Source of the DNA: a virus
Taxonomy: Duplodnaviria; Heunggongvirae; Uroviricota; Caudoviricetes
Reading direction: 5' to 3' (one strand)
DNA length: 64,000 nt
Virus record (IMG/VR): IMGVR_UViG_3300041955_000143
Coordinates: 37,290 to 101,289 of that record
Position numbers and translations under genes: made by a program. Numbering within the stretch: the first letter of the stretch is position 1; each line of letters opens with the position of its first letter. Shown here one piece after another: positions 7,029 through 64,000 of the stretch. The notes beneath the pieces were generated by a model that did no database searches, was not told where the DNA came from, and saw only the letters and a program-made list of their open reading frames with translations.

Positions 7029-7771
7029 AGCAATCTCCCAAGAGCGCGGGCATAGTCAATGGGATCGCGAGCGCCCTTCGCGAGATTGCATTTGGCACAA
7101 GTGATCTGGATGTTACTACGGTGATTGCTGCCGCCCGGTCGAGACAGGGCAATAATATGGTCGATGTGATAATCGAGGCCGAGTTTGCGACGGCAGTAAG
7201 CGCATTTCCTTCCTTGCATCCGCAAAATCGAAGCAATGTCATCGGTAGTAAATGAACCTGGGGCAAGCTTTTCGATTGCGCGGCGGCGATGTCCTGAAAC
7301 CCTCGCGTTGTGTTTAGCGCGCTCTGGATGATCCAAGGCCCATTGCCGCGTGCGCTCTTGGGCCCTTTGGCGATATTCCTCGTCAGCAGGTTTGCGCCCC
7401 TGTACTCGGCGCTGTTCCTTTACTTCAGGTCTCTTTACGCGTTTTTGGTGCAAGAGACGCGCACAATAAACGCAGTGACGCCCTTTAACGAAACGCAAGC
7501 CATCGTGGCCGTGAACACACTCCCTACCGTAGTAGTAAATCGACCCCTGTTTTATCGCCTCATCGCGAGGAGATTTTCTTGGCGGTTTCCGATTAGCCGC
7601 AGCACGCTTAGCAGCACCCAAGCTAACGCATTCACAGCATGTTGCCTTTGAAGTATAGCGTTCCGAGACGTGCCCATGAGGACACGGCCTATCGACAAAA
7701 TACCGCTTGAGGCCAAGTAGCCTCGCCTCTTTACGCGAAATGATTGGACGCCTAGTTTCATCGTCAGCCAT
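7025..7771 (-). CDS. HNH endonuclease (Cys-rich zinc-finger N-terminus)
   Basis: Motif YHIDHIIALSRPGGSNHRSNIQITCAKCNLAKGA is a canonical HNH core; multiple CxxC/H pairs upstream. Confidence 0.7.
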   Translation of the reverse strand: MADDETRRPIISRKEARLLGLKRYFVDRPCPHGHVSERYTSKATCCECVSLGAAKRAAANRKPPRKSPRDEAIKQGSIYYYGRECVHGHDGLRFVKGRHCVYCARLLHQKRVKRPEVKEQRRVQGRKPADEEYRQRAQERTRQWALDHPERAKHNARVSGHRRRAIEKLAPGSFTTDDIASILRMQGRKCAYCRRKLGLDYHIDHIIALSRPGGSNHRSNIQITCAKCNLAKGARDPIDYARALGRLL

Positions 7772-7801: not shown

Positions 7802-7993
7802 CATGCTTATCCGGTTGTCTCACACAGTCAGTCGAAGTAGTCCGTTTTGGTATCGAGCTTTCGGCGCATGATGACTTGGTGCCACAAATAGCCGCCAATC
7901 AGTCCCCAATCGCCAATTTCGTAGGATACGCGAAGCAACTGCCATGCTGTTTTCATGTCCTAACCCCCTGTGTGAGACAACCGGATAAGCATG
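7802..7993. mobile_element. 192-bp MITE with perfect 26-bp terminal inverted repeats (CATGCTTATCCGGTTGTCTCACACAG) flanked by 8-bp target-site duplication CTTGGTTA (7794..7801 and 7994..8001)
   Basis: TIRs and TSD read directly; first 13-15 nt of TIR match the ends of the IS1595-family element at 36598..38899. Confidence 0.65.
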
Positions 7994-28563: not shown

Positions 28564-29025
28564 CTAAACTCCCTCTGATGGCGTCGGCGGAGTTTTAGCC
28601 GCCTCCACAGCGGCAACCCGTTCCCCGACCATCGCCGCGACGTCAATCGATTCGCGGACTTTGTCGGTGAATATGGCAACCAGCGGCAATAGGCCGAACA
28701 TCGACCGCTCGAAGCATACCGATTCTTTGCCGTCGACGGTAGCGACATACGCTTTAACCCCCGGCAACCCACAGATCACGTTCGGGTCATCGTAGCCTTG
28801 CGCTTTTGCCATCTCGCCGGCAACGGCAACCTCATGCTCAAGGCCAGCGTTAGCCACAGTCGCATTCCACTCGTCTCGGACCGCATCGAACATGGCAACC
28901 ATCAGCGCGGTAATGACAGCGCGATCGACCGTAAGCTGGCCGCTAACTTCCTTCGCAACTAGTTCCTTGGCTGCAGCGCGGAGCGATGCACTGGCCTCGG
29001 CATACGCAGAAACAGGCTCGTTCAC
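28564..29025 (-). CDS. hypothetical protein (153 aa)
   Basis: ORF. Confidence 0.4.
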   Translation of the reverse strand: MNEPVSAYAEASASLRAAAKELVAKEVSGQLTVDRAVITALMVAMFDAVRDEWNATVANAGLEHEVAVAGEMAKAQGYDDPNVICGLPGVKAYVATVDGKESVCFERSMFGLLPLVAIFTDKVRESIDVAAMVGERVAAVEAAKTPPTPSEGV

Positions 29026-33865: not shown

Positions 33866-34639
33866 TCATGGCTTACATTCCATAAAGGCTCCAATAAATT
33901 CAGCGGCTAACGGCGCGACAATCGCGTTGCCGTAGGCGCGCAGGCGTCCCACTCGGCCGGGTATCCCTGTAGCCAGCGGGAATGTGCCGGATTCAACTGG
34001 CCGCGCTTTTCCGTCTGTGCAGGGGAGCCAGTCGCAATCTGCCCAACCTGCTGCGACAACGGGATGCCCGTGTCCGTTGGCCGTGGAGGTCGAACCCCGC
34101 GCGAATGATCCTGTGCTGTCGGGCTCACCCATCCCGCAATCGCGGTGGGCCACGAACCACAATCGTTGCCTGATGTGCGGCGCGCCGACGCCGCAAGCTG
34201 GCAGTACGGCCGATGCGCAGGCGTAGCCTTGTCCTTCCAAGTCAGCGAAAACAAGGTCGAGCCAACCCCATCCAATCGCCGCTTCAACTTGCTCACCAAA
34301 GATTGTTCTAGGGCGGCACTCGCGGATGAGAGATGCCCACGAAGGCCACAGGTGGCGTTCGTCATTGGCCGCCTTGCCCGCTCCTGCGGCGCTGAAAGGC
34401 TGGCAGGGACAAGAGCCTGTCCAAACAAATCTTTCGCCCCAATTGGCGAGATTGAGGGCATAGTCCCAGCCTCCGATTCCTGCGAAGAAATGTGCTCGTT
34501 CGACGTCTGGAATGTCGTCAGGGCTGAGGTCTTCGATTGGTCGGTCATCAATTTTTCCCGGCGTTATGTGTCCAGCGTCCATAAGGTTACTGAGCCAATC
34601 GCAGCAATAGCGATCAATCTCATTGTAAAATGCTTTCAT
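33866..34639 (-). CDS. DNA (cytosine-5)-methyltransferase (short form, 257 aa)
   Basis: Motif I FAGIGGW and motif IV PCQPFS(AAG) read from translation. Confidence 0.7.
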   Translation of the reverse strand: MKAFYNEIDRYCCDWLSNLMDAGHITPGKIDDRPIEDLSPDDIPDVERAHFFAGIGGWDYALNLANWGERFVWTGSCPCQPFSAAGAGKAANDERHLWPSWASLIRECRPRTIFGEQVEAAIGWGWLDLVFADLEGQGYACASAVLPACGVGAPHIRQRLWFVAHRDCGMGEPDSTGSFARGSTSTANGHGHPVVAAGWADCDWLPCTDGKARPVESGTFPLATGIPGRVGRLRAYGNAIVAPLAAEFIGAFMECKP

Positions 34640-35163
34640 CGGAGACAGATTAAATAGCGGTAGATTTTTTCGACAAGTTCTATGAATTGCGTTTCGGTCA
34701 ATCTGCCTTTGGCATAATTACATGCAGCACAGCACGAAACAACATTTTCGACTGTGTAACCCCCGCCGTTAAGGCGATCAATCCCGCCGCTTCGCAGATT
34801 ACCGCAATAATGGCAGGATGCCTTAACAAGGCCGCGAAATTGCTCACGGGTTAGTCCCCATTGCAGATTTTTCCGTTTAGCATTGGATCGGTAGGTACTT
34901 TCTGCTTCAAGTAGCCATCTCTCGGCAGTGTCATTACGCGACCGCTTTTGCCATGCACCGCGCCGCGCGCAAGTCGCACAGCAAATGACCTTCCCGCGAC
35001 GTAGCGCTGTAAGACGGACAGATCGAAACTCTCCGCATCGGCATAGGCAAACAGCGGTAACATGGACGTTCTTTGCACCACGCCGAATCGTCTGCACGGC
35101 CAAATCGCCGAAAACCTGCCCGACTTCAATCATTGCGGAGCCATTGGGCGGCATAGGTGTCAA
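34636..35163 (-). CDS. HNH endonuclease
   Basis: CHYCGNLRSGGIDRLNGGGYTVENVVSCCAACNYAKG; 4-nt overlap with downstream C5-MTase gene. Confidence 0.6.
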   Translation of the reverse strand: MTPMPPNGSAMIEVGQVFGDLAVQTIRRGAKNVHVTAVCLCRCGEFRSVRLTALRRGKVICCATCARRGAWQKRSRNDTAERWLLEAESTYRSNAKRKNLQWGLTREQFRGLVKASCHYCGNLRSGGIDRLNGGGYTVENVVSCCAACNYAKGRLTETQFIELVEKIYRYLICLR

Positions 35164-36242: not shown

Positions 36243-36356
36243 GAGAAGCTCGGCATCGGCGCGAACGGCGAAAGCCCGACCTACGACGGCCTGTACAGCG
36301 GCAAGTGGCATCATCAAAAGGTCAGTCATGACGACGAGGAACTACATGCTTGAACC
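36243..36356 (+). pseudogene. remnant of IS1595-family transposase C-terminus (…LGIGANGESPTYDGLYSGKWHHQKVSHDDEELHA*)
   Basis: Near-identical at nt and aa level to the last 35 codons of the intact transposase at 37817..38884 (LGIGANGESPTYDGLYSGEWTHPNVSHG...). Confidence 0.5.
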
Positions 36357-36542: not shown

Positions 36543-36610
36543 TTTTGTTTAGTGTTTGATCCATTGAACAAATCACATAACCGTCCTTGTCAACTTTCAT
36601 GCTTATCCGC

Positions 36611-37816: not shown

Positions 37817-38884
37817 ATGGTTCACGACATTCACCAATGGGAAAAACTGCCGTTCCCGAAGTCCCTGAGAGACTTTCAACGGCTTTTCCTCGACGACGCG
37901 GCGTGCGCTCGCTATCTCGAAGGCGCAAAATGGCCGGACGGCTTTCAATGTCCGCACTGCAAAGCCCGTGGCGAGCCTGTACGCATTGCTAAACGCCCGC
38001 TTGTGCTGGCGTGTCGCAAGTGCCGCAAGCAAACCTCCCTGACGGTCGGCACGGTCATGGAAAGCACTCATACGCCGCTGACGACTTGGTTTTGGGGCGC
38101 TTACCTCATTTCCAGCATGACGCCCGGTCTGTCTGCTGTTCAATTCCAGCGCCAGCTTGGCCTTACCCGATACGAAACCGCCTTCGGCATCCTACACAAG
38201 CTTCGCGCCGGTATGGTGCGCCAAGACCGCGACCGGATCGGCGGCAGCATTTCGGGCCGGGACCATATCGAAATTGACGAAACCTATATCGGCGGCGTGC
38301 TGCGCGGCGAGGGCAAAGGCCCCCATGCCGACGAAAAGACCCTTGTGGTCGCCGCCGTCGAGGTTCGCACCCGACCGCCCAAGAAGGGCGACAAGCCGCA
38401 ACGGCGCGGCGGGCGCTATGCCGGTCGCCTTCGGCTTGAAATCGTCCCCGACCGCACCGCCAAGTCCCTGTGCGGCTTTGTAGAGGCTGCGGTTGATCCT
38501 ACGTCCAACATGGTCGTTACCGATGCTTGGGGCGGCTACAACTCGCTGGCTGATCGCGGCTACGCCCACATGCCGGTCGTCGAGTCGAACAAGCCCGATG
38601 TTGCGGAAGAATACCTGCCAATCGTTCACCTTGTTTTCAGCAACCTCAAGGCTTGGCTGCAAGGCACGCACCACGGGCGCGTCGAGCCTAAGCACCTGCA
38701 AGCCTACCTCAACGAATTTACCTTCCGCTTCAATCGCCGCTTCTACCCGTTCAACGCCTTTCGTTCGCTCTTGGGCATTGGCGCAAACGGCGAAAGCCCG
38801 ACCTATGACGGGCTGTATAGTGGCGAATGGACGCATCCGAATGTCAGTCATGGAACACATCAACCGCTAGACACTGCATGTTGA
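37817..38884 (+). CDS. IS1595-family (ISXO2-like) DDE transposase
   Basis: N-terminal transposase zinc ribbon (AKWPDGFQCPHCKARGE...CRKCRK), DDE-region motifs HIEIDETYIGG, TDAWGGYNSL, C-terminal YLNEFTFRFNRR; paralogous to 62186..63088. Confidence 0.8.
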   Translation: MVHDIHQWEKLPFPKSLRDFQRLFLDDAACARYLEGAKWPDGFQCPHCKARGEPVRIAKRPLVLACRKCRKQTSLTVGTVMESTHTPLTTWFWGAYLISSMTPGLSAVQFQRQLGLTRYETAFGILHKLRAGMVRQDRDRIGGSISGRDHIEIDETYIGGVLRGEGKGPHADEKTLVVAAVEVRTRPPKKGDKPQRRGGRYAGRLRLEIVPDRTAKSLCGFVEAAVDPTSNMVVTDAWGGYNSLADRGYAHMPVVESNKPDVAEEYLPIVHLVFSNLKAWLQGTHHGRVEPKHLQAYLNEFTFRFNRRFYPFNAFRSLLGIGANGESPTYDGLYSGEWTHPNVSHGTHQPLDTAC

Positions 38885-39111: not shown

Positions 39112-39353
39112 AGCTTGAAATCCGATCTGTAGAAGCGATTATGTCCCGGTGTGATGCGTGGTTTTAGCTGTTTATCCGCCCGCAGAACCGCGTAGTGCCG
39201 GTTTATCGTCCGCGTCGAGCAGTGAAGTTTTTGCGCGACATACTGCGCTCTGTGGCCGGCGAGAAATGCGGCCTCAATCTCGGCGAGTTCTGCTGCAGTG
39301 AAATGGTCGTGGTGGTTACGGGATTTTTCCCAGGTGTCGGGGGGATGGGTCAT
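39108..39353 (-). CDS. small HTH protein (sigma70 region-4/HTH_23-like)
   Basis: FTAAELAEIEAAFLAGHRAQYVAQKLHCSTRTINRHY; ORF open to 39521 but Met57 start (39353) gives ATGA coupling to upstream gene. Confidence 0.4.
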   Translation of the reverse strand: MTHPPDTWEKSRNHHDHFTAAELAEIEAAFLAGHRAQYVAQKLHCSTRTINRHYAVLRADKQLKPRITPGHNRFYRSDFKL

Positions 39354-40381
39354 GCTGGCATCTCCCTGACCCGCAATCGTTCTGGCCATTCTGCTTGGTC
39401 TCCCCCTTTTGCGGATCGTAAGTGAAGCGGATAGCCGTCGCTCAATGGCGCGGCGCCGAGTTGCTTGACAAAACACGCAACGCCAGCAGCCTCGCATTGC
39501 GCCACGATGCTGTCGGCCCATTCGATCTGCATCGGGCGTGCATTAGGTCCACTCTCTCCACCGACGATCACCCAATCTAGCGCCGCATGCCCCGAGGTGT
39601 CGCCGCCGTTACCATCGCCGCCCCATGGGCTAAATCGTTTACCGTTTAGGCAACTCTCCCATGAATGGCCGAGGCCACCGTCAAACTCCTCGTGAATGCG
39701 CGTGAGGTCAATCGGCGCCAATAGCGGCTCCGCCGAAATAAATCGGACCGCCGCCGGCGTCTGCAATAGAAGCGGTATGCGCTCGTCGGCTTCCTGCTGG
39801 CGTTCGCAGGAGACGCCGAGCCAACAATTTTCAAGCGGCCAGCAGTAACGAATCTTTGCTGGCGTAACAGTCTCGGCGAAGGCAACATTTCGATGCGTGG
39901 CGCACTGTGCCGCAACGCGCGAGCAGACGTCTCCACCGCCGATGCTGCTCACAGTGGTATCCGACATGTAGCGGCACATTCGCTCCGCTCGCTTCGTAAG
40001 GATTTGAAAAGTGTGCTGCGGGCATAACGCGGCGATAGCCAACATCTTGTCGATCCATTCATCCTTCACGAAGTCGGCGAACAGGTCGGTCATCGAACAG
40101 ACGAAGATCATGCGCGGCTTTTTCCAGCGTAGCGGCGCCTGCAGCATTTCATCGTCGAGAAAAATTTCGACGTCCTTGCGGTGCCCCGGCTTGAACGGCA
40201 GGCCAGTGCCGAGCCGCTTGTTCATGCTCTCGGCGTAGCAAAACTCGCATCCTACCGTAGCATGTTCACAGTACCAGCCGATACGCCCCCACGGTTCGCC
40301 GTCAGACCCGACCCCCGATCGGCGAGCTCGTATTGGCGTCCATGAGGCGTCCGTCCATTCTATGTTTGAGCGGTCGCTCAT
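39350..40381 (-). CDS. phage Gp37/Gp68-family protein (DUF5131)
   Basis: N-terminal SNIEWTDASWTP...GWYCEHATVGCEFCYAE matches DUF5131 signature (IEWT..W.P..GC...S.GC..CYA). Confidence 0.6.
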   Translation of the reverse strand: MSDRSNIEWTDASWTPIRARRSGVGSDGEPWGRIGWYCEHATVGCEFCYAESMNKRLGTGLPFKPGHRKDVEIFLDDEMLQAPLRWKKPRMIFVCSMTDLFADFVKDEWIDKMLAIAALCPQHTFQILTKRAERMCRYMSDTTVSSIGGGDVCSRVAAQCATHRNVAFAETVTPAKIRYCWPLENCWLGVSCERQQEADERIPLLLQTPAAVRFISAEPLLAPIDLTRIHEEFDGGLGHSWESCLNGKRFSPWGGDGNGGDTSGHAALDWVIVGGESGPNARPMQIEWADSIVAQCEAAGVACFVKQLGAAPLSDGYPLHLRSAKGGDQAEWPERLRVREMPA

Positions 40382-42232: not shown

Positions 42233-42478
42233 CTATTTCGCCGCCCCCAGCTTCAACCGCTTCGTCTTGCTTGGGGTTGGATTTGCGGCGGTGATCGTGA
42301 CGACGCAATTATTCTCTATCTCGAAGAAATGACTATCGAATTTAATAGTGCCATTAGTCATTCCGGAGCAGATCCTTTGAATTTCTGCCCTATCGCGATC
42401 GAGGTTAAAGCCGCGGACGCGCTCGAGCCAACGGCATAGCGCATGGTCTGTGACACGGGGCGGCTTGGTCATTTCCAA
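42233..42478 (-). CDS. hypothetical protein (81 aa)
   Basis: Small ORF. Confidence 0.3.
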   Translation of the reverse strand: MEMTKPPRVTDHALCRWLERVRGFNLDRDRAEIQRICSGMTNGTIKFDSHFFEIENNCVVTITAANPTPSKTKRLKLGAAK

Positions 42479-43095
42479 GAGATCCTATGCAGTTCGGCTG
42501 GTCCTTGGTGGCCGAGTTGCCAGATAAACCAAGCGAATGCTGTCGCGCTTGAGGCGCGGGGGCCATCCCATCCAGCCCTGTGCATCATCGGCAGACGTGA
42601 ACGGAAGGCATAGACGCGCGCCAAGAGGCCCCCGTCGAGGATTGCACTACGGCGCTGCCCCTCGATGAAGGCTAGCCGCAGGAGCATCACCACTTTGGGC
42701 ACACCCAGCGTGAGCGCATGGGTGACGAATCGATCGGCGAGCGCATAAGGTGGATTGGTCACTATCGCGCCGATATGAAAACCAGGGTGTGCTTCCATAA
42801 GGAAGTCGATGCGGCTCTCAGAATCAGGGCAATCGCGGTCGACGAGATCCGTCGCGTAAACACGATGACCAGATTCCCGCAGTACCTTGACGATCGCCCC
42901 ATCACCGCAGGCTGGTTCCCAAATAGTGCCACTGAATTTTTCGACCTTCAAAAGCGCATGAACGGCTTCTGGCGGCGTGGCGTAGAAATCGTCCCGACGT
43001 TCCACTAGTGGGGCACGGCCAGATTGAGCCGATTTGTCGAGCATCGCCCTAGAACTCCTCACACTTCCAGTTTGTGCCGATCTTGGTAACCGCAA
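42469..43095 (-). CDS. DNA N6-adenine (or N4-cytosine) methyltransferase
   Basis: AIVTNPPY catalytic motif and FYATPP region read from translation. Confidence 0.6.
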   Translation of the reverse strand: MRLPRSAQTGSVRSSRAMLDKSAQSGRAPLVERRDDFYATPPEAVHALLKVEKFSGTIWEPACGDGAIVKVLRESGHRVYATDLVDRDCPDSESRIDFLMEAHPGFHIGAIVTNPPYALADRFVTHALTLGVPKVVMLLRLAFIEGQRRSAILDGGLLARVYAFRSRLPMMHRAGWDGPRASSATAFAWFIWQLGHQGPAELHRISWK

Positions 43096-43465: not shown

Positions 43466-43792
43466 TCACGCCGCGGCGCCAGCAGCCGCGAGCTTGACGC
43501 TGGCGCGCTCGATAGCGGATTTTCCAAGCGGGGTGTCGGCGAGCATTCCTAAAGCCGATTCGTAAGTGGAGACAATGGCTTCGTGCTCGGCCCGCTCGGT
43601 GGCATCCTGCTTCCGCAGCCGGATAATGGTTCGGAGCGCCTTGACGTCGAAACCGTTGCCTTTGGCCTCGGCGTAAACGTCGCGAATATCGTCGGCGACT
43701 TGCTGCTTATCTTCGGACAAGCGTTCGATCCGTTCCACGAAGGATTTCAGGTGGTCCTTCGCGCTCTTCGCCAGTTGCCCCTCGGTCGCCAT
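43466..43792 (-). CDS. GapR-like DNA-binding protein (DUF2312/UPF0335)
   Basis: HLKSFVERIERLSEDKQQVADDIRDVYAEAKGNGFDVKALRTIIRLRKQD matches DUF2312 consensus. Confidence 0.55.
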   Translation of the reverse strand: MATEGQLAKSAKDHLKSFVERIERLSEDKQQVADDIRDVYAEAKGNGFDVKALRTIIRLRKQDATERAEHEAIVSTYESALGMLADTPLGKSAIERASVKLAAAGAAA

Positions 43793-55365: not shown

Positions 55366-55380
55366 GCTGCAAACGAAAGA

Positions 55381-55423
55381 GCGAGCGAGAAAGAAACCAT
55401 CCCGCTCGCCTGCTTTTCGTTTT
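55381..55423. terminator. candidate bidirectional rho-independent terminator between convergent genes
   Basis: GCGAGCG-loop-CGCTCGC stem followed by CTGCTTTTCGTTTT. Confidence 0.35.
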
Positions 55424-55992
55424 CAAATTCTGGCGTAACGTCGGCGAGCGGCATAACCGTGTGGGTTGATTACTCTGACGCTACCAACACGGACCTCGCG
55501 GCGACCATAAGGACCGCTTGTCGTGAAGTATCCGCCGTGGACATTCGACACGATGGCTTCAACATGCCTATTCCCCCAGATCGCTGCCATACCCGGCGCT
55601 GGCGATGCTGTCTCAAAAACGTGCCACGTCCGCGCCAGCCATAGGTTTAAGCCGTTGAGGACGTGTGCCGTGGTGCCGAAAATGATGGACTCGGCAGTAC
55701 AGCCGCAAGGGCCGCCCATCCGAGCCGCCACATAGCATGGGCCAGGGATACTGCCGCCGTGCCTAGAATGGGCTACATGAACGCGGCGGATAGCCCCGTA
55801 GCGCCAGTGGCGTGGCCGCTGCTGGGCCTTTGCGTGGTGCCTGTGGCTTTTACCCTCCCAATCCCTATGCGCGCCGTAGGGGCTGTAGGACCGTTCTGAG
55901 GCCATATCTGGTCCCATCCAGGGGCCGTAGGCGTTGGCTTGGGTGGTTAGGGCCAAGAAGGCCGTGGCTGCAATAACCGTCGCATACTTCAT
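55423..55992 (-). CDS. secreted CHAP-domain peptidoglycan amidase/peptidase
   Basis: Signal peptide MKYATVIAATAFLALTTQANA; C-terminal GPCGCTAESIIFG...AAIWGNRHVEAIV matches CHAP Cys/His arrangement; ORF open to 56019. Confidence 0.5.
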   Translation of the reverse strand: MKYATVIAATAFLALTTQANAYGPWMGPDMASERSYSPYGAHRDWEGKSHRHHAKAQQRPRHWRYGAIRRVHVAHSRHGGSIPGPCYVAARMGGPCGCTAESIIFGTTAHVLNGLNLWLARTWHVFETASPAPGMAAIWGNRHVEAIVSNVHGGYFTTSGPYGRREVRVGSVRVINPHGYAARRRYARI

Positions 55993-56108
55993 CGGATCAC
56001 TCCTTTGTGCATGGTTCATCGTAGTCGCGGGCCTCGGCCCTCCTTGCCGGTCATGTTGTGGGGATGATGGGAAAGCCTAGCCGCTAGGCTTCAGGAAGGT
56101 CAAGCCTC

Positions 56109-56708
56109 TCAGCCGTACAGCAGTTCGAACTTACCGTCCTGGTGCTCCGCGACGGCCGTAAAGTTTTTCACGAAGTCGCCCGTATTTACATACAGGAACC
56201 CGCGCTGCTGGTGAATCTCTGGATGATGTAGATGGCCGCAGACGACCCCATTACAGCCCTGACCGAGTGCCGTGGTCTTCGCCATCCGGAGAAAATTGCG
56301 GTGGACGTAGCCGCTTAGGATGTTCTGCTGGAAGGCATGAAAAATAATCAGCCAGCCATTCATCAATGGATCGAACTTGTCGCCGTGTGTGACCAGCAAC
56401 CGGCGGCCATCGGCTGCCTGGTGGAAGACGTGATCGACCGAGACCATCCCACCGATCGCATAAAGGAAGTCGTGGTTGCCGTAGATATAATCGACCTTTG
56501 GAGCTGCGTTCTGCAAGGCGCGGATCGCTTCCGCCGGCACATTCTCACGCCTGCCGTTTACGATATCCCCCACCAGATACAGGTGATCCGCCGTGACCTT
56601 CTCGAGGAACAGCATCAACCGGCCGACCATCTCCGGCGATTGGGAGCCGAGATGCAGGTCGGACATGAACAGAGCGCGGTAGTGCGCTGCCTTGGCGTCA
56701 CCCATCAT
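56109..56708 (-). CDS. calcineurin-like metallophosphoesterase (LpxH-like)
   Basis: SDLHLG, GDIVNG, GNHD, THGD, CGHLH metal-binding motifs. Confidence 0.6.
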   Translation of the reverse strand: MMGDAKAAHYRALFMSDLHLGSQSPEMVGRLMLFLEKVTADHLYLVGDIVNGRRENVPAEAIRALQNAAPKVDYIYGNHDFLYAIGGMVSVDHVFHQAADGRRLLVTHGDKFDPLMNGWLIIFHAFQQNILSGYVHRNFLRMAKTTALGQGCNGVVCGHLHHPEIHQQRGFLYVNTGDFVKNFTAVAEHQDGKFELLYG

Positions 56709-56771
56709 TTCCCTGCTTCCCGACAGACAGCCCGAAGGCCCTGGCTTCCCTTGTCTCCTTGGAGGAGACTA

Positions 56772-57854
56772 TCACGCCCGCATCTTGTTGCCGCGCCACG
56801 AGAAGTCCTTCCTTGTCCATGCGATGCAGTAGATCCACGGGATCAGAATATCCCGCAACGCCATCGCCGGAATCATCCTCCACGAGCAGTGCCATCCCTT
56901 CGACCACGCCAGCAGCATCTCAGAACCATACCATGATGCCATCGCCACCGCGACAAGTGATGGAAGCGCCCAGCCGAACGACGCGATCATCAGAACTGGA
57001 ACGACCGCGGTGGATGCCAACTCAGCGGCGAACGGCACCGGGAAGGTCTTGCGGCGAAGGATCGCCCATCTCATCTGACGGTCGAGAACCTGCCGGAATG
57101 TTCTGTGTCCAAGAAGCTGCGGGAACGGCGCACTGACCAGCCTCACCCGCAGCCCGGCAGCGCGCACCACCTTGGTCGCGGCGGCGTCCTCGCAGACCTC
57201 GCTGGCGAGCGCCTCCACGCCGCCCCAGGAGTCCAGCAGCTTGCGGTCCCACAGCATCACCTTGCCCATCCCGAAGCCGTGGCCGAAGGCGTCGGCAACG
57301 AATTGCCAGCGCGCCTGGTAGGTGTTGAGGAAGGCGCATTCAAGCTCGGCGGCGAAGCTCTCCGGCCGCGAGCCGAGAGGCGGGGAGCATACTAGCCCCA
57401 CGTCCGGCGCCCACCGTGAGATCATCTGGTCCACCGCGTCCGGCGGCAGCAGCACGTTCGAGTCGGCCATCATCACGTAGCTCGCGTGACTGGCAGCGCG
57501 CCACCCCTTGGCCACGTTATTCAGCTTTGGGTTATCACTGATAGCATCGTCACCAATCAGCAGCATGGCGCGCCGGTGTCGTCCGACGATCTCCCCAGCA
57601 AGTTGCATGCCGCCGTCATCCCTGCTGGCGATGCAGAAGTAGACATTTGCGTCGTCACGGGAAAACGAGGACTCTAGCGTCTCCGGGTCGTGCTCCTCGC
57701 GCCCCGCGATCGGGCGGATGATGGCGACCGGGCCGTACTCACTCACCACCTTGGTCCCGGTACGGATACGAAGTCCGGCGACCAGGGTACTCAGGAGGTT
57801 GACGGCAATAACGATCGATGCGGCAACGAGGATCAGCGAGGCCATTAGCTCCAT
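56772..57854 (-). CDS. membrane glycosyltransferase (GT2/GT21 ceramide-glucosyltransferase-like)
   Basis: N-terminal TM then GT-A-type region; ORF open to 58091 but first 79 codons overlap upstream gene, Met80 (MELMASLILV) taken as start. Confidence 0.5.
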   Translation of the reverse strand: MELMASLILVAASIVIAVNLLSTLVAGLRIRTGTKVVSEYGPVAIIRPIAGREEHDPETLESSFSRDDANVYFCIASRDDGGMQLAGEIVGRHRRAMLLIGDDAISDNPKLNNVAKGWRAASHASYVMMADSNVLLPPDAVDQMISRWAPDVGLVCSPPLGSRPESFAAELECAFLNTYQARWQFVADAFGHGFGMGKVMLWDRKLLDSWGGVEALASEVCEDAAATKVVRAAGLRVRLVSAPFPQLLGHRTFRQVLDRQMRWAILRRKTFPVPFAAELASTAVVPVLMIASFGWALPSLVAVAMASWYGSEMLLAWSKGWHCSWRMIPAMALRDILIPWIYCIAWTRKDFSWRGNKMRA

Positions 57855-57912
57855 TTGCGCGGGACGATACAGTCGCCACCAGTCTGCATGAGCAAAATTG
57901 ACCACTTCGGCT

Positions 57913-58689
57913 TCAGTGTCCGCGTATCGAAATCCAGGTGATAAGCGGCGTAAGGATAGCTGCCGCGATGAATATAGCACCAGCAGCCCACTGAAAGACC
58001 TGGCTCTGCCCGGCCTGCGTCCCCTTGTTCGATGTCTCCTCCAAGTTGATCTTGTTGACGTTGAACGACAGCTTCGCAATTGCCTCCGCATTTGCTGCCG
58101 CCGTTTTCGCCAGCATCTCTGCCGTCGATGCCGAAAGCGCCGAGATACTCTCCGACATCTTCTTCATCGCATTCTCGATCGCCGGGTCCGCGACGCTGCT
58201 CCGTCCCGCAAGGGTGAATTGGAATGCCTCCAACTTGCTGACGCGGGCGTCAAACGTGGCCTGAATTTGGACGAGCTGAGTTGACACTAGGGTAGAGGTC
58301 GTTCGCACCGACTCAGCAAGCATGTCCCGGATGGTGTTCTGAAACTCTTGCCGGGTCTGAGCAAGCTGGTCGATCCTATTGGTTTCGGCTTGGCGCAGCG
58401 CCGTCTGCAATTTCGACTCCGCCTCGCGGGCAAAGTCTTGCATCCTAGACTCTGCCTCACGGGCGAAGTTCTGCAGCTTCTCCTGAGCAATGAGGTTTGC
58501 GTCAAGGAACCTGTTGTCGGCAACGCGCAGTTCGTGCTGGTGCTCCTTCTCGACATCGACAAGCGCCAACACGTTCTCAGTCGGATCGACGACGGGGCCG
58601 CCGCTAGCGTCGACGCCGATCCCCATCCCAGTCTGGACAGGACGACGAGTCTGTCGTTTCTTTCTGCTGCTGCTGCTGCTGCTGCTCAT
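57913..58689 (-). CDS. coiled-coil protein with C-terminal membrane anchor and N-terminal poly-Ser
   Basis: MSSSSSSSRKKRQ... (AGC)8 run at 58661..58684; C-terminal TM AAGAIFIAAAILTPLITWISI. Confidence 0.45.
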   Translation of the reverse strand: MSSSSSSSRKKRQTRRPVQTGMGIGVDASGGPVVDPTENVLALVDVEKEHQHELRVADNRFLDANLIAQEKLQNFAREAESRMQDFAREAESKLQTALRQAETNRIDQLAQTRQEFQNTIRDMLAESVRTTSTLVSTQLVQIQATFDARVSKLEAFQFTLAGRSSVADPAIENAMKKMSESISALSASTAEMLAKTAAANAEAIAKLSFNVNKINLEETSNKGTQAGQSQVFQWAAGAIFIAAAILTPLITWISIRGH

Positions 58690-58922
58690 CTCAATTTGAC
58701 CCTTACGTCATACTCGCCATTTCCGACCGCTCGCGTGCGAACGTAATAGAAATTCCAACCACGCCCGTTGACCGGAGCTTGCTTGAGCAACGCGCCGGGG
58801 CTGTAGCCAAGACCGACTTCGAGTTGCTTGACTGTAGGATAAGCGTCGGCTGCGTGCGCAGGGTGGCCGAACAGCAGGGCGGCGGCGAGGATTGTGATAG
58901 CGGCAAAAGGTTTCATCATCAT
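58686..58922 (-). CDS. small secreted protein (78 aa)
   Basis: Signal peptide MMMKPFAAITILAAALLFGHPAHA. Confidence 0.35.
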   Translation of the reverse strand: MMMKPFAAITILAAALLFGHPAHAADAYPTVKQLEVGLGYSPGALLKQAPVNGRGWNFYYVRTRAVGNGEYDVRVKLR

Positions 58923-58928
58923 TCCGAC

Positions 58929-59132
58929 TCACTTGGGGCTGTCTGCCAGTTCTAACCATTGAGACAGTTGGTCGGCAAATGCCTGAGCTTGAGTCTTGTC
59001 GGGGAATCCAATCACTTCCGCTAAGACATTGATTGTTATCTTACGGGGGTCATCGGTATTGGGCATCGTAATGACCTTGAACCTATCTGGCATCATGCGA
59101 ACCCCACCAACTTCGATGTTTGTTTCACCCAC
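58929..59132 (-). CDS. hypothetical protein (67 aa)
   Basis: Small ORF. Confidence 0.3.
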   Translation of the reverse strand: MGETNIEVGGVRMMPDRFKVITMPNTDDPRKITINVLAEVIGFPDKTQAQAFADQLSQWLELADSPK

Positions 59133-59572
59133 CCTAGTTCGACTAACGCAAGCTCGGCATCACCAGCATACCGTACCCCACCAACGCACACTGGGCGAGT
59201 CTCCAGTAAATTCATGGCCTCGACGGCAGTGAACCCTTGCGCCCTCATTATAGCATACCCTAATGATGGGCCCCTGTTCCTGCCCTCCGCACAATGCGTC
59301 AGCACAATGTTTCCCTTGAACGACAGCGCACCAATTCCAAAATCAATCGCGGACATGAACCAAGAAGCGCCCTTGTGTGTGCCGTCGTCTTTAGTCGTAT
59401 CGACCAATAGTGCAATGCCATTAGTCGGAGGGAATAGCGGTTCCTCACCATCAATGTTGGCGTCTATTACGTGAGTGATACCCAACGCTTTAATATCGGC
59501 AACATTGGAAGCATCCGTAATTCGACTACCGACATACAGCCTCTCGGTTATCCGGCTGCAGTCGTATGTCAT
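59093..59572 (-). CDS. dual-specificity/tyrosine protein phosphatase
   Basis: VLTHCAEGRNRGPS contains the HCxxGxxR P-loop signature. Confidence 0.55.
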   Translation of the reverse strand: MTYDCSRITERLYVGSRITDASNVADIKALGITHVIDANIDGEEPLFPPTNGIALLVDTTKDDGTHKGASWFMSAIDFGIGALSFKGNIVLTHCAEGRNRGPSLGYAIMRAQGFTAVEAMNLLETRPVCVGGVRYAGDAELALVELGWVKQTSKLVGFA

Positions 59573-60345
59573 CGCCGTGCCGCATCCTGTTTTATTGCTT
59601 GCACGTCGCTCAAAAGGGCGGCGGTGGCAAATCCAGATGGCGACTTTTCATCCTTCTCGATCCAATCAGGTCCGAACATGCAATAACTTTCATCACAGTA
59701 GGAATCCCAGAATTTCCAGCTTAGTGTCTTCAGCATTCCCCATGTAATGCAGGTCAATTCGTCCTCGTCATAGGCAATAACCGGAATCAGATGCCCGCCC
59801 CAAGAACCTGCGGCGCTGTCGCCGGTCAGGGTGGAGGCCCCTGGCGCTACATCCCAAGGGCCATTCTGCGCCGTCAAAGGCAGTTGCACCCCGACATAGC
59901 AAACACCAAAAAGAAAAATCGAGTTCTTCACATCAAGACGATTGCCGGGTTTCACCGAAGCGAACGCCGACAGTTTATGCCCCATGATCGGATTGCTGTA
60001 CCAATAGCGCAAAACATCGGTAGCCGCGCAGCCAGAATCGGTTTCCGGGTCCCCCGGCACATAGCCGCTTAACAGGCTATACAAGGAAAGAATTTCGCTG
60101 TCTGGCAAAATGACTTCGGCCGGTTGCGTGAATGAAGTCCACGTTTGGATGGTGTGGCCCACGCCAGCGATCGTACAACAACCTATTTCACGATTGAGCA
60201 TCGGCCCTAGATGCTTCAAGTTTTTGCTATAATCAGCAGAAACCGGCGGAGGCGATAGGGCGGCGGTGTATTTTTTGCTGTCGGGAAGTCCGAGCAATCT
60301 CTTAGGTGCGAGCTTTCCTAACTTGTAGATTGCGTCCGTCATCAC
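59569..60345 (-). CDS. papain-like (C1-type) cysteine peptidase candidate
   Basis: IGCCTIAGVGH (Cys nucleophile region), GGHLIPVIAYDE (His), CITWGMLKTLSW (Asn/Trp region) in papain-like order; 4-nt overlap with phosphatase gene. Confidence 0.4.
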   Translation of the reverse strand: MMTDAIYKLGKLAPKRLLGLPDSKKYTAALSPPPVSADYSKNLKHLGPMLNREIGCCTIAGVGHTIQTWTSFTQPAEVILPDSEILSLYSLLSGYVPGDPETDSGCAATDVLRYWYSNPIMGHKLSAFASVKPGNRLDVKNSIFLFGVCYVGVQLPLTAQNGPWDVAPGASTLTGDSAAGSWGGHLIPVIAYDEDELTCITWGMLKTLSWKFWDSYCDESYCMFGPDWIEKDEKSPSGFATAALLSDVQAIKQDAARR

Positions 60346-60629
60346 GGCTGTCCTGCATTGGGCACAACGGCGGTTTTGCCGAGCTTTTGTCTTGCGTCCA
60401 CGCGGTCACCATTCAGCATGACGATGATGTGGCTTACGCCATCCTTGGTCGTAAGCTGCATCAGGACGGAGCCGTCAGCGGCAGGAGGGGAGGTCACTTT
60501 AACCCATCCCTCCCCTTCTAGCTTCGCGATGGTCCGCTGCTGCTGCGAAACATTATTGGGCATAGACTGGAATGTAAGAGAAGCCGCCATTAGCAGCAGG
60601 CACTTTGACGTAGCCACGGAGGGTGCCAA
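60342..60629 (-). CDS. small secreted protein (95 aa)
   Basis: Signal-like MAPSVATSKCLLLMAASLTF. Confidence 0.35.
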   Translation of the reverse strand: MAPSVATSKCLLLMAASLTFQSMPNNVSQQQRTIAKLEGEGWVKVTSPPAADGSVLMQLTTKDGVSHIIVMLNGDRVDARQKLGKTAVVPNAGQP

Positions 60630-61002
60630 CCGCGGCCGCGCCGAGCCGACGCCTACGAAGCATCATTCTGGCTCCAACCGGGATCGACGGCAGGAGGTTT
60701 GTCAGCGCCGCAATAACGGCGTTCACCGCCGCACTGCCGGCCACAACAATTGCGCTGTAGGCAGGCCCGAACAGACCAGCCGCAGTCGCCGCAATGCTCT
60801 CGATAGTGGGGGCATAGTTTGCTACGGCCTGCACTACGTTCGTGATTGCGGTGATAACGGCCGGGTCAAGCCCGTAAGTGACGACGCCAGTGGTAGGGTT
60901 AGTGGTCGAGGCGCAGCCGCCAAGAGCGAGGACGCCAGCACCGGCACCGAGCGAAAACAGGTGACGGCGAGTAATATCGGTCTGCATTGTATTTCCTTTC
61001 AC
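60553..61002 (-). CDS. Tat-signal lipoprotein candidate
   Basis: TRRHLFSLGAGAGVLALGGC twin-arginine plus lipobox. Confidence 0.4.
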   Translation of the reverse strand: MKGNTMQTDITRRHLFSLGAGAGVLALGGCASTTNPTTGVVTYGLDPAVITAITNVVQAVANYAPTIESIAATAAGLFGPAYSAIVVAGSAAVNAVIAALTNLLPSIPVGARMMLRRRRLGAAAVGTLRGYVKVPAANGGFSYIPVYAQ

Positions 61003-61223
61003 TTGTTGGTGACGCCGGGGCCGGCGACATTCGACGAGAAGAAGTGGAATCCAAGGTTAATGCAGGTGAGAATGAAGGCGGCATCCGTCGCCACTGTTTT
61101 GATGTCGGATACTATGGCGGGAGAGAGGCTGCCAAATTGCACGCTGCCAGCCGCAATTCCGGTAAGGATAGCGAAGATGACGTTCAGCCAGATGGCTGTG
61201 GCCGGGTTGATTCCGTTCTGCAT
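60999..61223 (-). CDS. small membrane protein (74 aa)
   Basis: Two hydrophobic helices. Confidence 0.35.
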   Translation of the reverse strand: MQNGINPATAIWLNVIFAILTGIAAGSVQFGSLSPAIVSDIKTVATDAAFILTCINLGFHFFSSNVAGPGVTNK

Positions 61224-61359
61224 GGTTAATGCCCTTTCCCAAATTCACTATATAAGCGGCCTACTAGGCCATCCATGACATAGCGGCGACGGCGCCACTG
61301 TCTCCACGCAAAGCTATAGCCGAAAATGCAGCCAAATACAAAAGACGCGACGATCCAGA

Positions 61360-61779
61360 TCACAGATCACCTACCATCTTAATGAGCTTTTGCCTGTCCG
61401 TATCGAGCAGATAATATCCAGTGACCGGCTCCGTCTGGATCTTAACGCCAAATACCTTTAACCGCTTGTTGAGGCGATGAACGTGCTGGTCAATAACACT
61501 AGGATTGACATCGGACTCGCCTCCATACAAAGCCCTGCAAGCAAAGTCCCTGGTTACTACGCCCTTTCGCCTCAACAACAAGCCCAACATTGAGTAGCAA
61601 CGCGGGCCGATGCCGTGGCCTTTCATCCTCCACGGCAGAATAATCGACATCCCAAGCAGGCGCTCTAGCTCCTCCACGCGGTCGTGCAGCCTCTCAATTT
61701 CATCATCGCGCGAAATACCAGGCGACGAGGATCGCGGCAGCGACAATGAGGGCAAGGATTGCGCGAGCGAGGCGGTCAT
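61360..61779 (-). CDS. winged-helix transcriptional regulator (OmpR/PhoB C-terminal-like)
   Basis: C-terminal VDQHVHRLNKRL...GYYL pattern as in trans_reg_C domains. Confidence 0.45.
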   Translation of the reverse strand: MTASLAQSLPSLSLPRSSSPGISRDDEIERLHDRVEELERLLGMSIILPWRMKGHGIGPRCYSMLGLLLRRKGVVTRDFACRALYGGESDVNPSVIDQHVHRLNKRLKVFGVKIQTEPVTGYYLLDTDRQKLIKMVGDL

Positions 61780-61986
61780 TCAAGGCTTTCGTGCCTTGGC
61801 TGCGGCGGTTAAGGCCGTGGCGACGATGGCGTTCAACAGATCATCCGTAATCGCAGCCTGTTCATACCACGGCACGTCTGCCTGCGCCAATTTCTTGAGG
61901 GCGGTAAAGGCCGCAGTGGCTTCTGCTTGCGTATAAAGGGCCTGTGCCTTCAATTTCAGAGTTTGTTCATTCCATGTGGCGGTCAT
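61780..61986 (-). CDS. hypothetical protein (68 aa)
   Basis: Small ORF. Confidence 0.3.
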   Translation of the reverse strand: MTATWNEQTLKLKAQALYTQAEATAAFTALKKLAQADVPWYEQAAITDDLLNAIVATALTAAAKARKP

Positions 61987-62185
61987 CTGTCTATCTCCTA
62001 GTTATGACCCGGTAACACCGTCGCGCCCCGGCATACCTTCCACCATTCCGCAGTGCGCGGTACGTCCGGGGAACACCAATGTCGTAAAGGCGGCGATGTG
62101 CGCCAACCTGAATGATGGGCGATTATCCCGGACTTGACAGAAGCCTCTAGGCATGGCAATATCCTTCTATTGAAGGGGAAAAGCC

Positions 62186-63088
62186 ATGGCCAAACGACCC
62201 AAGCCCGTCCCGCAGATGACCGCCGCTCAGTTCGACGCGGCCTTTCCTGACGAAGAAGCCTGCAAAGCCTATCTGGTTGCCCGTAGATGGCCCGATGGCG
62301 TGCATTGCCCGCGCTGCGGCAATCCCAAGGTCTATGACCTGAGGTCGCGCCGGTGGCATTGGCAATGCGAACAGTGCGCCCCTGACGGCTATCGGTTTTC
62401 TCATATCGCCGGGACGATCTTCGAGAACACCAACAAGCCGCTCCGCGATTGGTTCAAGGTCGCCCATCTCATGCTCGCCAGCAAGAAAGGCATGAGTGCC
62501 TTGCAGATCATGCGCTACATGGGATTCGGCTCCTACAAAACCGCATGGGGCATGTGTCACAAGATCAGAACTGCGTTGATCGAGGACATTCAGAAGCTCG
62601 GCGGGATTGTCGAGGTTGACGAGTCGTTCATCGGCGGCAAAGACAAAAACAAACATTGGGACGGTCGCAAGCGCGAACCGCGAGAGCATCGCCTTTCGAC
62701 TAAAACTCCGGTCATTGGCGCAGTACAGCGCAAGGGCAACGTAGTTGCCCGCGTTCTCGACCACATCAGCAGCGCGGCTTGTCAGACATTCGTGCGCGAA
62801 ATGGTTTCCGACAAAGTCAGCTTGCTCGCGACCGACGAAAGTCGCGTCTATGACGGATTGACCGGATACAATCACCAAACGGTCGATCACCACCGTAAGC
62901 AATATGTCATCGGCGCGGTTCACACCAACACGATTGAGGGCTTCTGGTCGATCTTCAAGCGCGGCGTGGTCGGCACGTTCCACAAGATGAGCGCCAAATA
63001 TATGCCGCTGTACATCGCCGAGTTTCAGTTCCGCTACAATAACCGCATGAACCCCGACATTTTCGGGACGGCGATTTCTGGATGTTAG
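62186..63088 (+). CDS. IS1595-family DDE transposase
   Basis: RWPDGVHCPRCGN zinc ribbon, IVEVDESFIGGK, TDESRVYDGL, YIAEFQFRYNNR; paralog of 37817..38884. Confidence 0.8.
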   Translation: MAKRPKPVPQMTAAQFDAAFPDEEACKAYLVARRWPDGVHCPRCGNPKVYDLRSRRWHWQCEQCAPDGYRFSHIAGTIFENTNKPLRDWFKVAHLMLASKKGMSALQIMRYMGFGSYKTAWGMCHKIRTALIEDIQKLGGIVEVDESFIGGKDKNKHWDGRKREPREHRLSTKTPVIGAVQRKGNVVARVLDHISSAACQTFVREMVSDKVSLLATDESRVYDGLTGYNHQTVDHHRKQYVIGAVHTNTIEGFWSIFKRGVVGTFHKMSAKYMPLYIAEFQFRYNNRMNPDIFGTAISGC

Positions 63089-63090
63089 CT

Positions 63091-63858
63091 TCATTTTTCG
63101 GAGATACCAAATTCGTATTCTGGCACGTCATAGTTTTTGATTTCCATTAATGTAACGACAAAGGTACGACCAGATGCTTGAACGTCGTGGCTAGTTTGAT
63201 TGTTAAAACTGAATTTAAACTTTTTCTGATTTGGCGCTGACGTATAGACTTGAAGGTCTCGGACTTTTACGCCAGGAAGGTCTTTGTCTGGGAATTTCAT
63301 TGGAGTTGCATTTTGTATTAATGTTATTTCGCTCGCAGTCTCCGGCTCGGAAACATCTGTACGTAATGTCCCGGCATTGTCCAAATTCAACGTATCGTTT
63401 CCACCCACGCTAGTTGGAATATTTTTGATGGTTTGCTTGCTGGAATAGTGATGAGAGGATGCCGCGGAAATTAACTTCGCTAGATCAGCAAACGTAATTG
63501 GCCTCTGATAATTGGCCGCTTCAAACGACCCGAGACCCAGAAGCAACACACCAAAAATTCCCGAGAAAATAAGTCTATTTTTCCATGTAATTGGCTGTGG
63601 CAGTAGAAATGTTATCGCTACCCCTACCAACCACGCCAAAGCTAGAAGTATTAGCGCGAGGGTCATTGTAACAATCCCCGCCGCTGACAAGGATGCGATA
63701 ATGCAAGCAGTGGCAAACGTGGCGAGGAGAGCAAATGCTGCGTTTGCCAAAATGTCTCTAAATGTGCCTGTTGGCTTTGTGATTTTCTGTAATCCCCTTT
63801 GGCGTTGCCTTTCGAGATTCCTCCGTTGCTGGCGCGTAAGCGTCTTATTCCGCGACAT
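63091..63858 (-). CDS. passenger membrane protein (255 aa): basic N-terminus, 3-4 TM helices, ~130-aa C-terminal soluble domain; AT-rich codon usage
   Basis: Hydrophobic helices read from translation; markedly lower GC than surrounding DNA. Confidence 0.5.
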   Translation of the reverse strand: MSRNKTLTRQQRRNLERQRQRGLQKITKPTGTFRDILANAAFALLATFATACIIASLSAAGIVTMTLALILLALAWLVGVAITFLLPQPITWKNRLIFSGIFGVLLLGLGSFEAANYQRPITFADLAKLISAASSHHYSSKQTIKNIPTSVGGNDTLNLDNAGTLRTDVSEPETASEITLIQNATPMKFPDKDLPGVKVRDLQVYTSAPNQKKFKFSFNNQTSHDVQASGRTFVVTLMEIKNYDVPEYEFGISEK

Positions 63859-64000
63859 GGCAGAATCCTTCCTCTTTGGGATTGTACCTCCAAAGAGGGT
63901 TCCCGCAGAACGGGAACAAGATTTTGGGAGACGTTTTTTCCCTGATGACAGAGCAGTGATAGTGCATTATACTGCTTCTGTCTAGTTAGGGATAATCGCC

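Follow-up and report, generated by a model that had tools for sequence, protein, structure and literature searches.

The 64,000-nucleotide stretch of tailed-phage DNA analysed here (hereafter the window; positions 37,290 to 101,289 of IMG/VR record IMGVR_UViG_3300041955_000143, Caudoviricetes) carries at positions 55423–61986 a block of 13 head-to-tail open reading frames (ORFs) on the minus strand, all of them present where a first-pass annotation of the sequence had placed them. With moderate confidence, we read this block as a phage-borne lipid-renovation cassette region, in which two adjacent genes, one for a short metallophosphoesterase (MPE) related to the phospholipase C PlcP and one for a membrane glycosyltransferase of family GT21, would turn phospholipid into diacylglycerol and diacylglycerol into glycosyl-diacylglycerol; homology and gene context are what point to this function. 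The version that pairs this short enzyme with a GT21 in a phage is new here, while phage phosphorus-stress genes and the PlcP–glycosyltransferase pathway were both known already. The best explanation for the block as a whole is that it is the distal, variable accessory part of the late or lysis-proximal region of a phage that infects Alphaproteobacteria and comes from peat-type metagenomes.

The first-pass annotation had described the MPE as LpxH-like, which held for the fold and failed for the identity of the enzyme. The AlphaFold2 (AF2) model of the MPE (predicted local distance difference test, pLDDT, 88.9) had LpxH–lipid X structures as its best fold matches, with a lid made of two helices at residues 118–149. 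The metal-binding motifs (DxH, GD, GNH[D/E], H and GHxH) were all intact, and the ligands D17, H19, D48, N78, H79, H108, H159 and H161 were invariant in the alignment. The two LpxH equivalog models scored the MPE far below their cutoffs (NF003743, 34.5 bits against 134; TIGR01854, 31.7 bits against 190), and genuine PlcPs were likewise sub-threshold on these models (38–52 bits). No curated PlcP model exists for scoring. The nearest cellular homologs were alphaproteobacterial proteins of ~270–285 aa with 33–36% identity, which automated pipelines name LpxH. The homolog of Methylocystis parvus (P0023) is directly followed by a GT4 gene; the plcP-agt arrangement was shown experimentally in Methylosinus trichosporium OB3b and is reportedly shared by every type II methanotroph, Methylocystis among them (PMC9239053). 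Because the gene order in M. parvus matches this known arrangement, we take the cellular homologs named LpxH to be PlcP. The PlcPs of two further cellular loci (L014 and L025) matched the MPE with E-values of 2e-32 and 5e-37, respectively. Judged from these comparisons, the MPE is most likely PlcP-like and not LpxH. PlcP, which is under PhoB control, converts phosphatidylethanolamine, its monomethyl form and phosphatidylcholine (and phosphatidylglycerol in Pelagibacter) to phosphoalcohols and diacylglycerol (PMC3972451, PMC8231724). The MPE has 199 aa, against about 265–290 aa in the full-length PlcP architecture, and the short form defines a family: all six phage-type homologs have 185–203 aa and share 63–89% identity. 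We refer to this naturally minimised enzyme as mini-PlcP.

The membrane glycosyltransferase, which had been proposed as GT2/GT21-like, proved to be a GT21 protein (Glyco_transf_21, E 2.5e-49, 167.5 bits against a cutoff of 21.7) with N- and C-terminal transmembrane (TM) segments and the conserved signature motifs ADSN, EDAA and RQMRW (RQxRW). Its start is probably at 57845, since an ATG preceded by GGAG lies there and a 357-aa protein in the databases is 100% identical; the longer ORF opens with ~80 Arg-rich codons that run over the upstream gene. The best NCBIfam match was the HpnI model TIGR03472 (124.5 bits, cutoff 310), and an HpnI identity was rejected on this curated cutoff; the cellular relatives of the protein were also below it (188–210 bits), and no hopanoid or sphingolipid genes were found near the GT21 gene. 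These cellular relatives have 47–51% identity. Of the three large loci inspected, two (L014 and L025) have a true plcP as the immediate neighbour of the GT21 gene, and their PlcP orthologs are 65–67% identical to Methylocystis PlcP. The phage GT21s were monophyletic and nested among alphaproteobacterial cellular GT21s (neighbour-joining, 98 of 100 bootstraps). GT21 enzymes of the Pgt type transfer galactose or glucose from UDP-Gal or UDP-Glc onto diacylglycerol under phosphate deprivation, with PlcP supplying the diacylglycerol, and the pgt promoter of A. tumefaciens has a predicted Pho box (PMC3972451, PMC8231724).

The order GT21-then-MPE recurred in three other phage contexts. The phage contig L011 (12.7 kb; its lineage is present on 24 contigs, the longest of 72.9 kb) follows the gene order of the block, with identities of 74% for the lipoprotein (L011 5181–5585), 32% for the peptidase, 56% for the small secreted protein (L011 6391–6618), 82% for GT21, 89% for the MPE and 40% for the CHAP-like protein; an endolysin gene (GH108 and M15_4) lies upstream, and convergent RecT, exonuclease and HNH genes lie downstream. 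In L008 the GT21-MPE pair is accompanied by a homolog of the coiled-coil protein of the block, the product of the gene upstream of GT21, with 30% identity over 197 aa; L011 matches the C-terminus of the coiled-coil protein at 62% identity. In the IMG/VR contig L006 the pair belongs to a string of overlapping genes, after an exonuclease, a dNMP phosphatase and a nucleoside deoxyribosyltransferase, in a phage that has an endolysin and DnaB and nothing else in common with the window. GT21 and mini-PlcP thus form a mobile two-gene cassette, with which the coiled-coil gene often travels as a third member. Phage genes flank the pair on both sides in L006 and L011, as is asked of an auxiliary metabolic gene (AMG); the block in the window is bordered by phage early genes on one side and by a phage ORF truncated by an insertion sequence (IS) on the other.

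Two further phage contigs, L023 and L024, keep the peptidase (57–65% identity) and its small partner gene of ~76 aa a few kb downstream of their endolysins, and L023 additionally keeps the winged-helix and CHAP-like proteins. Both lack GT21, MPE and the phosphatase, and since they retain the remaining region the GT21-MPE pair is an optional insert and not core. The region after the lysis genes is therefore a variable cargo site, in which the GT21-MPE pair and the phosphatase are separate insertions. The conserved framework comprises the winged-helix protein, the small membrane protein, the Tat-type lipoprotein, the partner gene with the peptidase, the small secreted protein and the secreted CHAP. 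The composition of the block agreed with the first-pass description of an envelope-directed cargo region: its tetranucleotide correlation to the phage backbone was 0.857, below all 41 backbone windows of the same length (minimum 0.913). DNA searches with the block gave no match among deposited phages and only weak GT21 matches among plasmids, and a scan of viral contigs with the last early gene found nothing. Exact-protein look-ups returned short metagenome contigs only, whose sample numbers are probably those of peat-bog samples; one independent metagenome contig carries the transition from early genes to block at 100% identity. Database proteins identical to the GT21 and to the peptidase are both encoded on a contig of 101,289 bp.

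PlcP-like genes occurred in very few of the 50,697 deposited phage genomes: only Pelagibacter phage Mosig, Synechococcus phage S-SRM01 (two accessions) and a faecal 'Bacteriophage sp.' carried one, a 1.5-kb Salmonella phage fragment gave one further weak match, and none of the genes was paired with a glycosyltransferase. The Mosig gene (MT647606, L021 94129–94866) encodes a full-length PlcP homolog with 43% identity to Methylocystis PlcP, is annotated as 'putative UDP-2,3-diacylglucosamine hydrolase' and has a phosphate ABC-transporter (pstS-like) gene as its divergent neighbour; the annotation is probably a misnomer for PlcP. Full-length PlcP homologs are encoded on at least 591 IMG/VR contigs, with a median identity of 50% to Methylocystis PlcP in the best 80, and a GT4 agt-like gene was found immediately downstream of plcP in 34 of these best 80 (L026–L105). 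In IMG/VR contig L043, genes for PlcP, Agt and PstS stand in a row, and the PlcP gene is 73% identical in DNA to that of Mosig over the gene. AMG surveys list viral 'lpxH' under lipopolysaccharide (LPS) biosynthesis (PMC10653327). We flag this as an annotation problem: viral 'lpxH' genes are filed under LPS synthesis, yet their nearest relatives are PlcP and an agt gene is often next to them. In the searchable literature we found no phage gene named PlcP and no phage GT21.

In the mechanism we propose, a shortened, PlcP-type, Mn-dependent phospholipase C would strip the phospho-headgroup from inner-membrane phospholipids, leaving diacylglycerol and a phosphoalcohol, and the membrane GT21 of Pgt type would then move a hexose from a UDP-sugar onto the diacylglycerol to form phosphorus-free glycolipids. 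The phosphoalcohol would become available for phosphate recovery, and the infected or lysogenised cell would exchange phospholipid for glycolipid with its membrane kept intact. The most likely benefit would be membrane phosphorus freed for phage DNA synthesis in a phosphorus-poor habitat; the altered envelope may be a side effect or an alternative benefit. We rank phosphorus mining first because the L006 cassette lies among nucleotide-salvage genes, the Mosig PlcP gene lies by a pstS-like gene and L043 has PlcP, Agt and PstS together. Among the phosphorus pools of a cell, membrane phospholipid ranks with the largest, and it matches in order of magnitude what a burst of ~100 genomes of 65 kb needs. 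Bringing its own phospholipid-to-glycolipid pathway, a phage could uncouple its replication from external phosphate, which would give viruses a new way of driving nutrient cycling where phosphorus is scarce, in peatlands and oceans.

Several observations weigh against this reading. The main caution comes from the MPE, which compared with PlcP lacks ~35–40 lid residues, the C-tail and short loops after GD and GNHD; with this truncation and only 33–36% identity to PlcP, its substrate may differ. As for the glycosyltransferase, one of the three cellular GT21 loci had no plcP neighbour, GT21 enzymes can also use ceramide and the related HpnI uses hopanoids, and our comparison was made with related Rhizobiales GT21s only. 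The cassette is also rare, being found in one IMG/VR contig and a handful of metagenome lineages: GT21 had no match in the 50,697 deposited phage genomes, and the 185,579 representative genomes held no close relative of it and one distant locus only. Some of the IMG/VR plcP-agt contigs may be host contamination. Matches to the Pho box (CTGTCAT-N4-CTGTCAT, up to 3 mismatches) were not above chance in the window, and none fell in the block. Finally, in the window and in L011 the cassette lies among lysis-proximal, envelope-acting genes, a position that fits a role in lysis or surface modification too.

Surface or envelope conversion is the alternative to which we give most weight, unlikely as we think it: here a prophage would express the cassette to alter the membrane glycolipids of its host against superinfection, antimicrobials or predators, and not to release phosphorus. 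The two IS1595 copies and the MITE-like element inside the phage suggest that it has long resided in a chromosome, the composition of the block sets it apart as cargo, its products include secreted ones and a lipoprotein, and membrane lipid composition has been linked to phage adsorption (PMC6445935, PMC9938194). Against it, no integrase, repressor or att site was found among the ORFs scanned in the window, beyond which the source contig extends; the L006 cassette sits with nucleotide-salvage and replication genes, and the 20 kb examined there gave no sign of lysogeny; and Pgt and Agt glycolipids are mainly found in the inner membrane. Less probable again, to our mind, is an accessory lysis module in which phospholipase C, CHAP, the papain-fold peptidase and the lipoprotein jointly dismantle membrane, wall and tethers, with diacylglycerol destabilising the membrane. 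The block does lie downstream of an endolysin in L011, L023 and L024, the deposited phage MW202816 has its peptidase homolog directly after an amidase endolysin, CHAP is a lysin domain, and we recognised no endolysin other than the CHAP of the block, and no holin or spanin, in the window. A glycosyltransferase that consumes diacylglycerol has no obvious role in lysis, however, the GT21-MPE pair is optional (absent from L023 and L024), and in L006 the cassette follows nucleotide-metabolism genes and is not beside a lysis gene.

The first-pass annotation had offered two readings, a lysogenic-conversion or effector island with lipid A or glycolipid modification, or else host DNA. The glycolipid part is plausible. 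An island for modifying lipid A or the LPS core through an LpxH-like enzyme and a glycosyltransferase is very improbable in our judgement: the fold and the best PDB matches are those of LpxH, automated pipelines give that name to the homologs, and the AMG surveys follow it (PMC10653327), but genuine PlcPs fail the LpxH models just as the MPE does, the closest cellular relatives belong to plcP-agt operons, and the GT21s characterised so far act on diacylglycerol, ceramide or hopanoid, with no lipid A or core transferase described among them (PMC8231724; NCBIfam HpnI). To host chromosomal DNA caught between the phage and the terminal IS we give hardly any credence. The composition of the block is unlike that of the backbone, and GT21 and PlcP have cellular relatives; yet synteny ties the block to the phage contigs L011, L023 and L024, the cassette recurs in the unrelated phage L006, the representative genomes contained no close GT21 relative, and the IS interrupts a phage ORF. 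Two other statements of the first-pass annotation did not survive. The block had been placed at the phage genome edge, of which there is no sign, since the IS1595 element interrupts a small ORF conserved in L011 and so sits inside phage DNA. It had also been said to hold no standard phage functions, whereas the peptidase is a PHROG family member that follows endolysins in four or more phage lineages and CHAP is a usual phage lysin domain. The reading we prefer thus remains a lipid-renovation cassette within a phage cargo region, whose features are listed in Table 1.

Table 1. Features of the block and its immediate surroundings in the window, ordered by position.
Feature	Position	Strand	Basis
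Putative terminator: GC-rich hairpin (about 55381–55409), then T-rich tract	55371–55409	-	Read from sequence; between block and early operon
Secreted divergent CHAP-like peptidoglycan hydrolase	55423–56019 as ORF (198 aa); probable 55423–55992 (189 aa)	-	CHAP matches of relatives
Mini-PlcP, short LpxH-fold metallophosphoesterase, 199 aa; predicted phospholipase C yielding diacylglycerol	56109–56708	-	Metallophos_2, E 5.6e-14
Membrane GT21 lipid glycosyltransferase, 357 aa, Pgt-like; predicted to glycosylate diacylglycerol	56772–57845 (long ORF to 58091)	-	PF13506
Tail-anchored coiled-coil membrane protein, poly-Ser N-terminus (MSSSSSSS), 11-aa repeat	57913–58689	-	Single C-terminal TM segment
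Small secreted protein, 78 aa, N-terminal signal peptide	58686–58922	-	Hydropathy scan; L011 homolog
Small ORF (55–67 aa) travelling with the phosphatase	58929–59132	-	Called in metagenome contigs L001–L003
VHR-like dual-specificity phosphatase	59093–59572	-	DSPc, E 1.8e-8, 34.7 bits against a cutoff of 33.5
Papain-fold (C1, xylellain-like) cysteine peptidase, no signal peptide	59569–60345	-	phrog_19005, E 3e-30
Small partner gene of the peptidase	60342–60629	-	67–68% identity to the ORFs immediately preceding the peptidase homologs of L023 and L024
Predicted Tat-type lipoprotein, 149 aa	60553–61002	-	TRRHLF twin-arginine motif and LGGC lipobox
Small membrane protein, 74 aa, 1–2 TM segments	60999–61223	-	Hydropathy scan
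Stand-alone OmpR/PhoB-type winged-helix DNA-binding protein, 139 aa, N-terminal coiled-coil	61360–61779	-	Pfam Trans_reg_C
First ORF of the leftward block, 68 aa	61780–61986	-	ORF list; no Pfam match
3' remnant of a small conserved phage ORF cut by the IS	61998–62117	-	56% identity over 34 aa to L011 ORF 3503–3703, pairwise E 3e-9
IS1595-family element with 27-nt imperfect terminal inverted repeats; context, outside the block	62118–64000	+	NF033547, E 6e-61

The accessory proteins were for the most part as the first-pass annotation had described them: the OmpR-like winged-helix protein, the predicted Tat lipoprotein, the papain-like peptidase, the dual-specificity phosphatase with its coupled start and the poly-Ser coiled-coil membrane protein all stood, and the secreted CHAP hydrolase stood in part. 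The peptidase had no Pfam match, Peptidase_C1 included. Its AF2 model (pLDDT 91.6) matched xylellain best in Foldseek (3ois, E 8e-10, TM-score 0.67) and then procathepsins, with a probability of 1.00 for both, and Cys57 and His185 were invariant in the alignment of relatives; on the basis of this model, the protein is predicted to be a papain-fold, C1-type peptidase with Cys57/His185 as the active pair. Homologs lie downstream of endolysins in L011, L023, L024 and MW202816. The start of the partner gene is probably internal to the ORF, since conservation is limited to the C-terminal ~69 aa. This ~76-aa gene was always directly upstream of the peptidase gene, in the window, in L023 (7314–7544) and in L024 (6078–6341), which suggests that the pair is a conserved unit of phage regions downstream of endolysin. 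Another peptidase homolog (47% identity) was found in Methylovirgula sp. HY1 (CP073764, L020 3426371–3443135), in a cluster with a lone large terminase gene and a Lipase_3 gene; housekeeping genes flank the cluster, which may be a prophage remnant, and the same genome has a second copy of the homolog (P0290). The 74-aa membrane protein of the block has 40% identity to the N-terminus of the gene product encoded just upstream of the peptidase homolog in L020.

The phosphatase has the active-site motif HCAEGRNR (HCX5R), and its best PDB sequence match was human VHR/DUSP3 (E 8e-10). Its gene overlaps the upstream peptidase gene by 4 nt (ATGA), has a GC content of 0.517 and a codon fit of -0.08, below the backbone minimum, and is absent from L011, L023 and L024. 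The small ORF next to it (GC 0.49, codon fit -0.09) is likewise absent from L011. Together the two have the lowest GC and codon fit in the block and a tetranucleotide correlation to the backbone of 0.16, against a minimum of 0.46. This eukaryote-like phosphatase was inserted recently, and more recently than the GT21/mini-PlcP cassette.

The winged-helix protein matched Trans_reg_C with E 4e-7 (30.4 bits, cutoff 26.2); having no receiver domain, it is not a response regulator. It gave weak NCBIfam matches to TctD, PhoB, QseB and CtrA and a weak PDB match to the DNA-binding domain of BasR/PmrA, and its L023 homolog has 39% identity. For the CHAP-like gene, the likely start at 55992 is an ATG preceded by AAGGAG, which gives the protein a signal peptide. 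The window protein itself had no family match, including to Pfam PF05257; its family has 135 representatives, 21 of the 56 aligned relatives matched Pfam CHAP (best E 1e-6), C96 and H143 were invariant in the alignment of these 56, and the homologous 199-aa protein of L011 has a weak CHAP match of its own. The L011 lineage has, after its CHAP-like gene, a DPBB_1 gene (RlpA or lytic-transglycosylase-like; 10728–11066) that the window lacks. PDB sequence searches with the coiled-coil and CHAP-like proteins found nothing, and the PADLOC defence models had no match among 10 block proteins. Long plus-strand ORFs over the block (e.g. 60358–61278 and 56337–56936) were rejected as antisense artefacts, because their tblastn matches always mirror the minus-strand genes.

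The IS1595 element at the right end of the window encodes a transposase (62186–63088) and a low-GC passenger ORF (63091–63858; GC 0.447) for a 255-aa membrane protein, for which the family search returned no match. The last base of the window is the last base of the right IS repeat, so the assembly may have broken off at this repeat. Another IS1595 copy is found in the interior of the phage at 36598–38899 (transposase 37817–38884, termini CATGCTTATCCG...); a 79-nt stretch at 36252–36330 is 82% identical to the 3' end of this copy, and a MITE-like pair of perfect 26-nt inverted repeats 140 nt apart (7802–7993) shares its terminus.

The phage backbone genes in the window include those for TerL, portal, an ejection protein, Erf and YqaJ. 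The late operon (TerL, portal, tail-collar and ejection/transglycosylase genes) runs leftward, and the early operon, with Erf and a YqaJ-like exonuclease, runs rightward and ends at 55365, convergent with the block. The hairpin between early operon and block was not reported by a consensus terminator scan because its loop exceeds 8 nt; a sigma-70 promoter scan had no matches and is uninformative for Alphaproteobacteria. Where the leftward and rightward operons diverge, the window encodes a GapR-like nucleoid-associated protein (43466–43792; PF10073, E 1.7e-33), an alphaproteobacterial signature. Together with the GcrA and MT-A70 genes on the 72.9-kb relative of L011, this gene points to an alphaproteobacterial host. 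We also found in the phage a C5 cytosine methylase (33866–34639), a second DNA methyltransferase (phrog_799; 42469–43095), a DUF5131 protein (39350–40381) and several HNH endonucleases (7025–7771, 34636–35163). ARAGORN called a 99-nt tRNA-Gly(ACC) at 28678–28776, which is doubtful because of its length and its position inside the ORF 28564–29025.

A wider proposal is possible, and we make it tentatively, as one that we would sooner expect to fail than to hold. Phages of soil and peat may carry a self-contained mobile cassette, made of the lid-reduced mini-PlcP, GT21 and often the coiled-coil partner, that during infection turns host membrane phospholipid into glycolipid and so mines phosphorus for phage genomes; many viral 'lpxH' genes may really be PlcP, so that the strategy would be widespread and overlooked; and the PhoB/OmpR-type effector might drive Pho-type promoters.

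Parts of the block can be compared with known systems. The peptidase (phrog_19005) shares its fold and its Cys/His pair with xylellain and the cathepsin-type C1 proteases, and differs from them in sequence (~12% identity) and in its setting, always after the partner gene and downstream of phage endolysins. HpnI and the eukaryote-type ceramide glucosyltransferase belong to the same Pfam/CAZy family, GT21, as the window protein, which is set apart from HpnI by a score far below the cutoff and by a neighbourhood without hopanoid or sphingolipid genes. LpxH, the best structural match of the MPE, has in common with it a calcineurin-like fold with an inserted helical lid; in the MPE this lid is shortened, both curated models fail and the closest relatives are not LpxH.

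The closest parallel is the PlcP-Agt/PlcP-Pgt pathway by which Alphaproteobacteria, including SAR11, remodel their lipids under phosphate starvation (S. meliloti PlcP, A. tumefaciens and M. loti Pgt, Methylosinus and Pelagibacter PlcP-Agt); in it, genes for an LpxH-fold metallophosphoesterase and a lipid glycosyltransferase are likewise paired; the nearest cellular homologs of both phage genes are in these families, and cellular GT21 genes are found beside plcP. The phage version differs in its enzyme, which has 199 aa instead of about 270–285, a lid that is cut down and no C-tail; in gene order, with the glycosyltransferase first; in using GT21 and not the GT4 Agt of the best-studied operons; and in being phage-borne, with no Pho box detected in the block. 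The phosphorus-stress genes of marine phages (pstS, phoH, phoA) and the 'lpxH' of Mosig are likewise host-derived metabolic genes from nutrient-poor habitats. Those are single genes from marine phages, whereas the window belongs to a soil or peat phage of Alphaproteobacteria and would bring a two-enzyme pathway, built from a truncated enzyme and a GT21.

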